In this document: one piece after another, positions 20,939 to 58,196 of the stretch
Layout: the number at the start of each line of letters is the position of its first letter
Numbering within the stretch: the stretch's first letter is position 1
Source of the DNA: Octopus vulgaris
Lineage: Eukaryota
Reading direction: 5' to 3'
Length of the DNA stretch: 64,000 nt
NCBI GenBank assembly: GCA_951406725.2
Contig: OX597817.1
Span: 147,498,001-147,562,000 of the forward strand
Position numbers and translations under genes: made by a program
The notes under the pieces: generated by a model
What the model was told of the DNA's origin: nothing
What the model saw: only the letters and a program-made list of their open reading frames with translations
Databases searched by the model: none

Positions 20939-22203
20939 GGGTTGGAAAAATAATGGAAACACCTAGCATCATAGCATCATAATTTGTAAATATCTATAAA
21001 ACCGCCAATAGCTTGTTTATTTTAATTTTTTGTTATTCATTATTAGTGTTGCTTAATATATATTACTAAAATTGCTGTTTGTTTTCAGAGATCATCAGAA
21101 AATGGTAATTAAAATTCATGAAAATTACAGATCTATCGGACTTTCAAAGAGGTTAAATTGTTGGTGCTCATACGGCAGGCGCTAGCGTAACGAAAACAGC
21201 CGAAATGTTTGGTGTATCAAGAAGTATTGTCTCAAAATTAATGGCAGCTTTTGAGAAAGTGGGAAACACCTTCTCGTCGAAACAAAACTCCGGGGGAAAA
21301 AAATTTCAGATAGAGACCGTTGGGCTCTTACGCAAATTGTTAGAAAAGATCACAAAAGTACAGCTCCCAAAATTACTACAGACCTTAAGACCACAACGAG
21401 AACCCAGTTTCCAAACACTGCTCGCCGGGAGCTACACAAAGCCGCATTTCATAGGATGACTGCAATCAGAAAACTACTACTTTCAAAAACAAACATTGCA
21501 AAACATTTAGAGCAAAGTAAAAACCTACAGAATTCGTGCCTAGGGCAGTGGAAGAATGTTATGTTCTCGGACGGGTCATCTTTTACCTTATTCCCGACCA
21601 CTGGCCGATTATACCTGTGGAGACAGCCAAAAGAAGTATTTGACCCAGACTGCCTTCTTATAACTGTTAAACATGGAGGTGGATCTGTGATAATCTGGTG
21701 GGGAGTATATTTTGGAAGTGTGCCGGCCCAATGGTTTCCCTTCATGGCTGACTTAATAGTCAAAACTATTTAAGCATTTTTTCTGATCAAATTCATCCTA
21801 TGTTTGCGGTACTGCTTCCAGAAGGCAACGCAATCTTTTAGGATGATAATGCACCAATTCAAACAGCTAAATTGTTACTGAATGTTACGAGGAACATTCT
21901 AGGGAAGTTGAACATCATATCTGGCCAGCATAGTTCTCAGATCTCAATATTATTGAACATTTATGGCGCATTTTGGAAAAAAGCAAGTAAAGAGTCGATA
22001 TTCTCCACCATCACCACTACAAGAACTGGAGACTGTTTTAGCTGAAGAATGGAGAAAAATTCCTTTGGAATCAATTCAAACTTTGTACGAGTCCATATCT
22101 TATAGAATTCGAGCTATAATTACCCCCAAAGACGGTCCTACTCCATATTAAAACAAATTTGTTTGAAATTTTGAGGTGTTTCCATTATTTTGTCCAACCC
22201 CTA
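20936..22203 (+). mobile_element. Full-length decayed Tc1-family DNA transposon
   Basis: TIRs caggggttggaaaaataatggaaacacct / aggtgtttccattattttgtccaacccct; inserted at a (TA)n edge. Confidence 0.92.
21118..22151 (+). pseudogene. Tc1 DDE transposase pseudogene
   Basis: MKITDLSDFQRG*IVGAH...MFGVSRS HTH region; WKNVMFSDGS, TVKHGGGSVIIW, DDNAPI, WPA*FSDLNIIEHLW, GPTPY*; stops and frameshifts. Confidence 0.92.
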
Positions 22204-28472: not shown

Positions 28473-28537
<65 letters not shown>

Positions 28538-28561
28538 ATAAGCAACAAGATGTCAAGAATA

Positions 28562-28646
28562 CATGCAGTACGACCGTTTCAAGTGGATCTATTAAATTGA
28601 TCAATCATTACATCAATTTAAATGCAGGGCTATCATCAGCTGCACA
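28562..28646 (-). ncRNA. Type I hammerhead ribozyme motif, core intact, long stem II
   Basis: UGUGCAG-CUGAUGA-[stem II containing uuaaauugau/aucaauuuaa]-GAAA-CGGUCG-UA-CUGCAUG; base of stem II poorly paired. Confidence 0.6.
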
Positions 28647-28772
28647 AATAAACAGAATATTAATCAGTTGGACATATCAAATATAATTTTACTCAAACTC
28701 TTTAACAGAGCAATAAGATGGAAGAGATCGATGTTGTCGCTAATTTAGCTAAGAATAAACTACCTTTATGTA

Positions 28773-52369: not shown

Positions 52370-54815
52370 AAGTTGTTTGTTATAGCCAGTCAGAAAGTGA
52401 CAGTTGGGTCCACACCTCTGAAGCGCTTAAATTTATAGGCGACTCGTCAGGCATAAATGACCGGGAGCACATAAACTCTCTACAACTACGAGGAGGAGGA
52501 AAATGTTATGGTCTGTCAATTTTGTAAAAAAAAAAAATAATAATTCCGTTCTGGAACTCTACTGGCTTAAATTTATGTCTACAAACGCCAGCCGTAGAGG
52601 TCTGAAGATTTTCCCTAGTCGTCAAATGAGTAATTTCAAGTTTCCAATACGAATTTCCCTTGATGAGGGCACAGATTAAATGCCCCTTTTTTGAGTTTAA
52701 AGAGATTCTCGGGTTAAGTGAGTTTTTCAGTATTCTTACTCTTTCGGTCAAACAAAGCTTAATAGTAAAATAATAATACTAGAAGCATGAGGTAGTTGCT
52801 TTCTTTGGACACGACAAATTATTTTTGCTTTTGTTACCTATTGAAAGGAATATGTGAACGCTGTACATCCCAAGCAAGACACACCTTGGGAGAAGACATT
52901 TTAGCTTCTACCATTAGTTACAGCATCGTCACATATTCTATAATTTTATGAAGAAACACCACAAATAAGAAAATTAAGGCGGCTATATCAGATAAAGTGG
53001 AATACTGACAGAATACTATATAGTCTTAGTTTTGGCCATCTTTTTCATAGCTGGACCCCCTTTTCTCAAATTCAGATTTCAACATTCATCCATAAGAATC
53101 GATAAAATGTGTATCAATCAATTTGTGTCATTGAGTACATGGTATCAATACCTAACGCGAAAGGATAGTGACAGTATTTAATATTGTAGCCTAGTAGTAT
53201 ATCATGGTTGAAAAACGAAATACAGTGTCGCTACAAGTCGTGAATCCTTATATTCGGTGTTTAAACTCTGGCGAGCTTATCTTTGCCTCTCCACTTGCTT
53301 CTCCATCGGACTTGATAGAAGTTATAGATAAAATACCAGAGCTGAGCAAACGACACTCGAATAACAGTACTGTATAAAATGTTTTAAGGGCACAGGTCTC
53401 CAGAGTTGGGAACTAGGAATGTGGCGCAGCATGGAAAGTGTAGTATAAAGGCAAGTACTGTTATCAACATGTCCCACGATGACTAATATCCTTGCTGGCC
53501 CCGGGAATAAAACTTCCTGCGTTTAATTATCAATATATGAAGCAAACTGCCACCAATTGGAGGCATGTAATCGGGAGTAATACAAAGTTCAGAATCTATT
53601 GTTATAATCACATTCGACACTCTAGTAAACTTTAAAAAATTACATAGGACCCCTTTCTCGAAAAATACATACAACGAGGCTATAATCACATGCTTATCAT
53701 CATTACAAGATTTCTTTCCCTTAGAACTTTCCTAAGCTTGCATACCTCATACGATGAATGTATGACACAAAACGAAGCACGCTGTGCAGGGAGCCCTAGG
53801 CAAGTCGTGATCACGATTGTGTCGTGGTTTCGATTCCCTGCTGAAGCAACTACACTTTTCTTAAGTTCTTAATACTCTGAAGAAAGCGATTCATGACTAA
53901 CACCCTATATTTAAAAATCTAAATAATCGTACCCTAGGGGGGTAACTACTGAGCGTGCTGTCTGTGCAAGTTGATTTTGCCTCGCAGTTGGAATCATTTT
54001 AGTCACGTATGAATTTTGATACGCTTGAAGGAACAATATCGTAAGTAAACCCACGATACATCTGATAATTCATATCTACATGAAATAGTTTTTATTGGAA
54101 AAGAATTTGTGCTATCCGTAGCAGCCAAATTGTGTCATGTGATTCTCACTGATTCTAAAACATCTACGATTGCATTTGGTTAGTGAAATGTAACCATATT
54201 CTATAAATATATATATACATATATTTTTATTGAATCACTCGTACATTTTCAAGAACTAATAAATCAATCATTTCACACATTGAACTAATGAAAAGACAAA
54301 GAAAAAAAAACAACAACAGTAAGTAACATAACAACGATGACGACGATGACGACGACGATATATCTGCAATATAACAAATACTATTACAATCAGGGTAATT
54401 AATAACTGAGAACGAATTTCGTGAACCGTATGTTCGTGCAACTTTTATGTCTCGCTTCAATCTGTTAACACACACACGCACACACAGAAACACACAGAAA
54501 CAGACATACACAAACACACACGCAAACGCACACACATAAACACACATACACAAACACAGACACATACACACACATATCCAAACATATGATACATGCATTA
54601 ATATATGCATGTATGTAATCTATCTCTTTATCTCTCTATTCATGTGTGTATGTGTGTATTTGTGAACCTGATTTTTTCTGTCTAAATCTATATACATTCA
54701 TACTTACAGTATACATATATGTACATATATACACGCATGCACACAAATGTACGCACACTTATACCCTCATGTTTATATATAAATATATATACATATATAC
54801 ATATACTTACATATC

Positions 54816-54847
<32 letters not shown>

Positions 54848-54921
54848 CATATAGATACATACATCCACAAACACACACGCATATACTTTCTAATTAAAAC
54901 TGCAAAAACATCACAAAACAC

Positions 54922-54995
<74 letters not shown>

Positions 54996-55003
54996 CGAAA
55001 AGT

Positions 55004-55279
55004 ATATAATGGGTCATTCACTTGTTTAAACATAGATATAATGAATCATTTACCTGTGTAAATATAAAATTCACACTATCGTATATAAACAGACATATAT
55101 AACGTATACACACTAACATATACCATATTTGCCCATATGCTAAACTAAATACGTATGCAAATTAAGTTACATATACTTCAAATGCATAAATATATATGCA
55201 ACAAGATATATATTTAGAACGCATGTAATTAAATATAAATCAATGGAGATATACATATTTATCAATTGGACACACACAC
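55004..55279 (+). repeat. Direct duplication, copy 1 (copy 2 at 57007-57308)
   Basis: Same sequence apart from small indels. Confidence 0.9.
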
Positions 55280-55344
55280 ATACGAGTATATATATTATAC
55301 ATACGAGTATATATATATACATTAACATATGTATACATACAGAC

Positions 55345-55972: not shown

Positions 55973-56689
55973 ATTGAAAGATGGTTTACGAATTTTTAAC
56001 TTTTTTGTCTCGTAGACACTAAAAGCTACTTTATAAGCTCATTTGATTTTATTATGGGGAGAGGTACAAAAGCGCTCATTGCCGAATGATGTATGTGTGT
56101 ATGAGCGCATGCGTGAGTGTGGTCTTGTGTGTGTGTATGTGTATATATATATATGTGTGTGTGTATGTGTGTGTATATGTGTGTGAGTCTGTGCTTGTGT
56201 ACTTGTATGTTAATGTAAGGGTCAATCTAGGGTGAGAGAGAAGTAGGAGAGTTGTCAAGGTCGGGAAAAGTGGGTACCAGGTGGTATTAAGTTGAAATGG
56301 GTTCTGACAGTTTCCACGCTTCCAAATGCTCACAACACATATATTTAAAATAGGGACAGAGGGCGCTTTAACATAATGCTATAAAATGAAATAAAATAAA
56401 AAATAACGATATCAATACGTTGTTTATTATGTGCATTTGAGGAGAGTTTCACGATCAACACACTCGTATACGTAAAGTTTTCTCCCACACAAATCTAGGA
56501 CTACATATAGTGGCTGGGTGCGTACCCAAACACTTATGGGGGCAAATACACACCGACATTCAACAATCACCCCCTCTCACATACTCATACGTACACATAC
56601 ACATGTATATATAAACACATGCATCTGAACATACATACACAGACGCATGCATATATATGAACAGGTACATCTACGTACATATACGCGCC

Positions 56690-56751
<62 letters not shown>

Positions 56752-56755
56752 ATAT

Positions 56756-56809
<54 letters not shown>

Positions 56810-56897
56810 TACATATACCTATATATACATATATGTGTGCATCTGTTTATCTATCTATCTATCAATACATACATACATACATACATACATACATACA

Positions 56898-56956
<59 letters not shown>

Positions 56957-57394
56957 ATATACATACATACATACAAGCACACATACACTTCTGGAAAAGT
57001 ACACAAATATAATGGGTCATTCACTTGTTTAAACATAGATATAATGAATCATTTACCTGTGTAAATATACAAAAATATTCATACACTATCGTATATAAGC
57101 ACAGACATATATATGCACGTATACACACTAACATATACACATATTTGCCCATATGCTAGCGCAAACTAAACTACGTATGCAAATTAAGTTACATATACTT
57201 GCAAATGCATAAATATATATGCAACGACGCAGATATATATTTCTAGAACGCATGTAATTAAATATAAATCAATGGAGATCATACATATTTATCCAATTGG
57301 ACACACACACATACACATGCACGCATACACATACACAGACACACACACACATGTACATACACACGCACACACACAAATTGATATGTCAGACATA

Positions 57395-57444
57395 CCAGTA
57401 TTACTGTGATTTCGAACTTTGAGAACTTAGTTCTCGTCAGCGAG
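57395..57444 (-). ncRNA. Type I hammerhead motif, inverted diverged copy
   Basis: CUCG-CUGACGA-GAAC...GUUC-GAAA-UCACAGUAA-UA-CUGG; mismatches in stems I and III. Confidence 0.6.
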
Positions 57445-57909
57445 GCTTACTAACACTCAAGGTTGTAGAGTTTATTCATCTCAACCAATGTGTCTCATGA
57501 ATTTTTTTAATGCCGCAGCAAATTTAAAAGGGTGATCGAAATATATGACGGACACTTCAATTTTCGGTCATTTTCGTTATTGGTATGGGGGTTCGTACGT
57601 TTTTTATTCATTTGTCCACTTTCATTTTAGTGTTTCAGTGGTAATTTGTGGTTTAGTCATTTTGACTGCTACGTCAGCATACTGGTAGTACCTGTTAGAA
57701 GCCTAAATTATTAATTGATAATTTATAGCGTTATAGGTATTTTTACTCATGCTAAAACATTGATATTATAAACAATGATTTCCCTATATATATATATTTA
57801 AATAATTTTTATTCCCATCGATCACCTTTTAAAATTTGCTGCAGCATTAAAAGGGTCATCACACCCATTGGTTGAGAGGAATAAGCTCTAACCCTGTATG
57901 TAAGTAAGA

Positions 57910-57964
57910 CTCGCTGATGAGAACAAAGAGTATTTCTCAAAGTTCGAAATCACAGTGATACGGG
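57910..57964 (+). ncRNA. Type I hammerhead ribozyme, core intact
   Basis: CUCG-CUGAUGA-GAAC..GUUC-GAAA-UCAC A GUGA-UA-CGGG; all three stems pair; predicted cleavage after 57960 (AUA). Confidence 0.8.
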
Positions 57965-58159
57965 AATGCCTGACTTTTTAATTTTGAATTATTTTCGTTA
58001 TTGTTACGGGTTTCTTAAGGATTTTATTAATTTTCTCGCTTTCGTCTTAGTGTTTAAATGATAACTTGTGGTTTGGTCATTTTGAGTACTATGCCAGCAT
58101 GCTGGTGCTGCCTGGTAGTAACGTAAAATTATTAATTGATAATTGATAATATATATAAA

Positions 58160-58196
<37 letters not shown>

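Follow-up and report, generated by a model that had tools for sequence, protein, structure and literature searches.

The repeat at 57375-58145 is one decayed copy of an old, dispersed, non-coding hammerhead repeat family and belongs to a previously known kind of element, the non-LTR retrozyme or non-autonomous Penelope-like element. It lies in a 64,000-nt stretch of DNA (the window) from a 2.8-Gb, microsatellite-rich genome, in which at least 84 independent family loci with 142 arms were mapped. Most arms ended 3' at one of two fixed sites of the 422-column unit, A and B, and paired arms were joined by their 5' ends. Penelope-type priming of two strands at A and B is very probably the origin of these scars, an assessment made jointly over three readings of the template (a closed monomer, an uncut multimer and a linear RNA with a ribozyme-cut 5' end). 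The reading preferred here, in which a Penelope-like reverse transcriptase and endonuclease acting in trans used a closed 422-nt monomer to insert two arms at a TA microsatellite, is given an even chance.

The locus and its hammerhead

The element was divided into an inverted arm at 57375-57540 (minus strand, unit positions about 276 to 422 plus 25), a back-to-back (5'-to-5') junction of 2-3 AT filler bases at 57541-57543 and a forward arm of two passes. The first pass occupied 57544-57960 (plus strand, unit positions 5-422) and the second 57961-58145 (plus strand, from unit position 1 to about 184). The second pass stops at site A or slightly beyond it, and the forward arm is an A arm. A (TA)n tract at 58146-58190, the likely target site, followed its 3' end. 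The inverted arm had its 5' end at the junction and its 3' end against a (CA/GT)n tract. It was shorter than the usual second arm, ran 25 nt beyond its own cut site and ended at position 25 rather than at B; either later loss or internal priming could account for the missing B end. The region with the two fixed 3' ends was also present as an internal copy at 57664-57800 (plus strand), tentatively a candidate priming structure.

The direct repeat of period 421 given in the preliminary description was recovered, 57545-57727 matching 57966-58148 at 76.6% identity. The inverted copy reported at 57395-57444 is real but was drawn too short, and reaches 57375-57539 (80.6% identity to 57984-57818). 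The three segments of the locus differed from the column majority by 14, 17 and 12%, and family segments by a mean of 11.4%. No open reading frame of at least 120 aa was found in the element, and GC content was 0.33 over 56001-58000. The element thus has the short non-coding unit, GC below 45% and single type I hammerhead per unit of non-LTR retrozymes, and carries no reverse transcriptase plus GIY-YIG frame of the kind found in autonomous Penelope-like elements (PLEs). A 781-aa Penelope-like protein gave no tblastn match in the 64-kb window. Directly to the left of the inverted arm lies one copy of a local duplication of ∼500-570 bp (54774-55283 and 56749-57314, ∼2 kb apart), 78% identical overall with parts at 96-98%. 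Elsewhere in the window, a 172-aa frame at 21255-21773 (plus strand) resembles what we take to be a Tc1/mariner transposase remnant.

A type I hammerhead was predicted at 57900-57974 (plus strand) by descriptor search and folding. Its core was as previously described: CUGANGA (CTGATGA, 57914-57920), GAAA (57946-57949) and UH were all present. Stem II comprised 4 bp (57921-57924/57942-57945) plus a 3-bp extension, stem III the palindrome ATCAC-A-GTGAT (57949-57959) and stem I the segments 57910-57913/57961-57964 with an internal loop; A17 is at 57960 and the predicted cut falls after it. All three helices were present, helix I being open-ended; stem I contains an internal loop and stem II a bulge. 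The hammerhead had been called intact, which holds for the core but not for stem I, where two pairs had decayed (A-A proximal and A-G distal). The second hammerhead, in the inverted arm (57395-57444, minus strand), has decayed: its core is present, and stems I and III both contain mismatches. When at least 4/4/4 bp were required in the stems, 57900-57974 was the sole descriptor match in the 64-kb window, and none of 30 local shuffles matched. The window gave no Rfam match at the gathering score. Weak Rfam matches up to E 5 were taken as chance, and no hammerhead family was among them. Over 30 motifs from this family and its sisters, stems I and II were paired at 0.90 versus 0.71 with shuffled partners, a value reached by 0 of 2000 shuffles; the comparison was confined to stems I and II, stem III being preset by the search pattern.

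The stem III sequence reported earlier was found, but a loop of 1 nt cannot close, and the monomer would instead form 4 bp with a triloop. Predicted energies were +0.8 kcal/mol for this hairpin and -9.6 kcal/mol for the self-duplex, and the active fold of the monomer was predicted to lie ∼9 kcal/mol above the ensemble by a model of secondary structure without tertiary contacts. Action as dimers is described for hammerheads with such short palindromic stems III (PMC4209133, PMC7229834; here and below, papers are cited for the portion of their text that was available). On these modelled energies, the dimeric cleavage suggested in the preliminary description is plausible. With one hammerhead per strand, the locus can give neither an intramolecular dimer nor monomer release, nor a self-made 421-nt circle; the ∼421-nt circle proposed earlier therefore cannot arise here. 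The single hammerhead per strand also places the locus outside the 'active' class as defined in the available text of a preprint (10.64898/2026.07.22.740005), and this copy is dead as a retrozyme source; the assignment of the family to the retrozymes is based on its remaining features.

Family loci, 3' ends and arm pairing

DNA searches returned 285, 223, 399 and 124 candidates, and 40 from each were scored. Together with pattern matches and fetched places these gave 85 loci, reduced to 84 when L054 was dropped as a duplicate of L043. Arms below 40 bits were omitted, and L010 was left out of the shared-variant and deletion-start analyses because an insertion upsets its alignment. Core and stem II were intact in only 15 of the 78 segments that cover the hammerhead, and a single locus (L006) had two complete hammerhead regions on the same strand, both decayed. 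In two sequencing runs guessed to be RNA, short contigs resembling the family numbered 16 and 4; none of them was 99% identical, and they are uninformative on transcription or circles. A search of literature outside subscription returned no paper on this family or on a counted A-plus-B rule.

The 3' ends of the 142 arms fell at site A in 53 cases, at site B in 58 and elsewhere in 31. Site A lies near unit positions 172-176 and site B near 250-263, the latter blurred by matching TA, so that the two are ∼80 nt apart. Microsatellite sequence adjoined 78 of the 111 A or B ends versus a background of 12%. The 84 loci contained 50 back-to-back arm pairs and no tail-to-tail pair. Where both ends of a pair were at A or B (31 pairs), 29 were AB, 2 were AA and none was BB (P 2e-7). 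Junction microhomology was short (mean 1.4 nt). Seven of the 31 other 3' ends (L095, L085, L019, L002, L059, L016, L001) fell on the cut or shortly beyond it, in the interval from unit position 422 to 25, and possibly mark a minor third priming zone. Among the 29 AB pairs, the lengths of the A and B arms were negatively correlated (Spearman -0.48, P 0.008), which may be a product of locus selection.

Single copies of the A/B region folded into a multibranch structure (z -2.7 for a hand-picked copy), and the whole unit of this locus folded at z -2.3. The alignment fold retained two short helices only, with 2 of 11 pairs covarying, and a folded structure at the priming sites is put forward as a lead only, from modelling.

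Both arms of a locus come from one template lineage. Consecutive passes of an arm shared non-majority letters at 0.029 per site (17 pairs; P 0.006) and two arms in the same pass at 0.022 (41 pairs; P 2e-5), over a between-loci baseline of about 0.010. For two arms in different passes the value was 0.019, which did not reach significance (P 0.70, 8 pairs). The core occurs in two types, which differ by an additional base ahead of stem II, and the type was consistent within each of the 11 informative loci, among them this one (P 0.002). The shared variants fit repeated reading of a closed monomer; a homogeneous uncut multimer also fits them.

The cut site and the template

The preliminary description had placed the 5' junction at the predicted cut and had taken this as the start of a ribozyme-cut template longer than one unit. 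In the forward arm, however, resemblance to the family sets in only at 57544, which is unit position 5, and 57540-57543 match 0 of the 4 bases due after the cut, so the junction lies 4 nt downstream of the site. The clustering of 5' junctions at the cut proposed there as a test was sought across the family: 2 junctions fell within 10 nt (3.8 expected) and 9 within 20 nt (7.5 expected; P 0.34). The family profile had put the 5' end of this locus at 18; with the end placed at 5, the count within 10 nt becomes 3 versus 3.8 expected. Truncation at the 5' side was random, the outcome that the preliminary description had itself named as refuting its reading, and a chi-square over 14 bins gave P 0.058 with its excess near positions 211-240, away from the cut. 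The cut site was crossed by 94 of the 142 arms, among them the inverted arm of this locus. Given these crossings and the lack of 5' clustering, a cut 5' end was not the usual start, and the junction at the cut does not generalise across the family. The claimed length of the template stood: 28 of the 142 arms exceed one unit and two of them (L006 and L010) cross two cut sites, while no arm reaches two units. With only 2 of 142 arms spanning two cut sites and none two units, genomic copies alone would run down.

A linear template of more than one unit with a ribozyme-cut 5' end, at which full-length copies stop, is accordingly considered unlikely, although the forward arm starts close to the cut both here (position 5) and in L002 (about 1-3). 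Three of the five arms that reach the upstream cut stop within 20 nt of it (0.31 expected; P 0.004), a post hoc count with n = 5; without this locus the count is 2 versus 0.24 expected (P 0.025, likewise post hoc). As a trace of a cut template end these stops are suggestive at most, since L003 falls about 20 nt short of the cut, L006 and L010 run through it, and the 4-nt offset, the inverted arm and the family-wide 5' ends described above speak against such an end. The sample is biased to long, hammerhead-bearing arms and so has less power for stops at the last cut, a bias partly offset by one query that begins at the cut and lies outside the hammerhead core.

Deletions were then counted as a second possible trace of cleavage. 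Four deletions of 5-22 nt start in a 3-nt window at the cut versus 0.45 expected (P 0.001), and this is the only one of 320 such windows to reach four starts, its width having been chosen after the data were seen. All four remove bases 3' of the site. A 12-nt window at the cut showed no excess of insertions and deletions (5 versus 2.7, P 0.14), 78 of 90 crossings were clean, and deletions also clustered in stem II. As a residual trace of cleavage the cut-site deletions are therefore faint. At L009 and L002 the deletion is present in one arm and absent from the other, so that each event is specific to one arm; alternative causes are a jump across a nick, the use of a second RNA molecule and a later deletion in the DNA.

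The same priming of two strands is possible, though we lean against it, on an uncut linear read-through of a tandem source, the hammerhead being idle in copying. The many crossings of the cut, their mostly clean sequence and the ordinary number of 5' stops there are as this reading expects, as is the predicted cost of the active fold in the locus monomer. The available text of PMC11167929 reports that insertion in vitro is independent of the hammerhead, mutants leaving it unaffected, and proposes a multi-copy mRNA. Against an uncut template, no source with two full units was present among the 84 loci, two complete same-strand hammerhead regions occurred in L006 only, and deletion starts pile up at the cut. 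Pass-specific columns were also absent, 0 of 176 columns separating first from last pass after correction, in a comparison of low power.

Cleavage, circularity and the enzyme, which we infer, would enter the preferred closed-monomer reading as follows. A source with at least two units would be transcribed, and its hammerheads, probably as dimers via the stem III palindrome, would release monomers. The monomer would close to a circle, either ligated or merely held by stem I. The enzyme would nick both (TA)n strands and start copying from one strand at internal site A and from its partner at B. Each cDNA would extend upstream, usually over the cut site and sometimes past one turn, before the two cDNA ends were joined back to back. 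Rare failure at the nick could leave either a stop near the cut, as perhaps at this locus and L002, or a small deletion there.

Several results sit poorly with a closed monomer. Deletions confined to one arm (L009, L002) are not expected from a single covalent circle, insertions and deletions were not in excess in the 12-nt window, and uncut RNA is reported as the main substrate in vitro in the available part of PMC11167929. The short junction microhomology, the non-significant sharing between two arms in different passes and the reported lack of a start-site difference between strands in vitro also count against the preferred reading. A rather doubtful variant is that animal retrozymes are inserted by a Penelope dimer, which primes the two cut strands at different fixed sites and reads round a hammerhead-cut monomer held by stem I, with a jump across the nick. 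In that case ligation need not occur, and rare missed jumps would be recorded as stops and small deletions at the cleavage site.

Known elements and sister families

Mobilisation of animal retrozymes by Penelope elements has been proposed from shared features (PMC7229834) and from phylogeny (10.64898/2026.07.22.740005), and the insertion scars of this family offer footprint evidence for it. As far as those two texts were available, metazoan non-LTR retrozymes share with this family a short AT-rich non-coding unit, a type I hammerhead, a head-to-tail arrangement and the proposed Penelope mobiliser. They differ in unit length (350-390 nt in mussel retrozymes versus 422 nt here) and in forming arrays, whereas the copies here are dispersed partial tandems of less than two units with an inverted arm.

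Correspondence was also found with Penelope-like elements and their non-autonomous derivatives. The portions consulted of PMC8557442 describe partial tandems, 5' truncation with a truncated copy lying adjacent in inverted orientation, a tail that is often present at one end only, and insertion at (TA)n, all seen here. PMC11167929 ties the tail to two internal start sites of reverse transcription, with both strands extended. Also common to this family and those elements is a hammerhead whose stem III is palindromic and whose stem II is preceded by an additional base (PMC11167929, PMC4209133). Differences are the open reading frame, lacking here, and the tail, ∼80 nt here versus 30-40 nt (PMC8557442, PMC11167929). 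The pairing of one A with one B arm is nearly strict here (29 of 31 pairs). In the available text of PMC11167929, by contrast, start sites in vitro are reported not to differ between strands, and for that Penelope system the pairing rule makes a sharp prediction.

LINE-1 twin priming also gives a back-to-back inverted 5' segment. As in that process, the inverted arm ends close to the start of the forward arm at this locus and at L002. Unlike the products of twin priming on one linear RNA, the two arms of most loci have sequence in common and stop at fixed internal sites.

An autonomous partner was sought among GIY-YIG elements, of which the genome gave 6136 candidates, including elements that combine reverse transcriptase plus GIY-YIG with pLTR repeats and terminate in (TA)n. 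No match to the family profile was found in 30 GIY-YIG loci or 5 longer PLE loci (35 of the 6136 candidates, mostly one young family), which counts against mobilisation in trans by a Penelope element. The young autonomous family (L235-L239) has a 781-aa frame with reverse transcriptase and C-terminal GIY-YIG, partial tandems and (TA)n ends; a pattern search found no canonical same-strand hammerhead core in it. Penelope protein fragments adjoin the element in L008, L069, L085 and L243, and were judged incidental as candidates for the partner.

These fragments, and the derivation of retrozymes from pLTRs in the available text of 10.64898/2026.07.22.740005, would suit an orphaned pLTR of an extinct autonomous Penelope element. 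The fragments join at differing places, tail-to-tail, and the sequence upstream in all long arms is another pass of the same unit and never an open reading frame. A DNA-level satellite with repair inversions does not fit the combination of fixed 3' and random 5' ends. Both versions are very improbable and are largely refuted by the arms that exceed one unit.

At least three sister families in the genome have the same stem III with different but compensated stems I and II. Some show 92-94% identity between passes and are therefore younger and better test objects than the present locus, which is decayed and a poor experimental object. Palindromic stems III were noted in sister families at L175, L194 and L202 (period about 500), L179 (about 604), and L191, L195, L243 and L244. 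The window contains a second hammerhead-like motif at 28530-28750 (minus strand), with CTGATGA plus an extra T, a stem I of 5-7 bp, a long stem II region, and GAAA with a stem III that is short and nearly palindromic. It belongs to another repeat family (L245-L252; 2111 candidates), was kept in 7 of 8 aligned copies, and that family ends on (TA)n ∼35 nt after the predicted cut.
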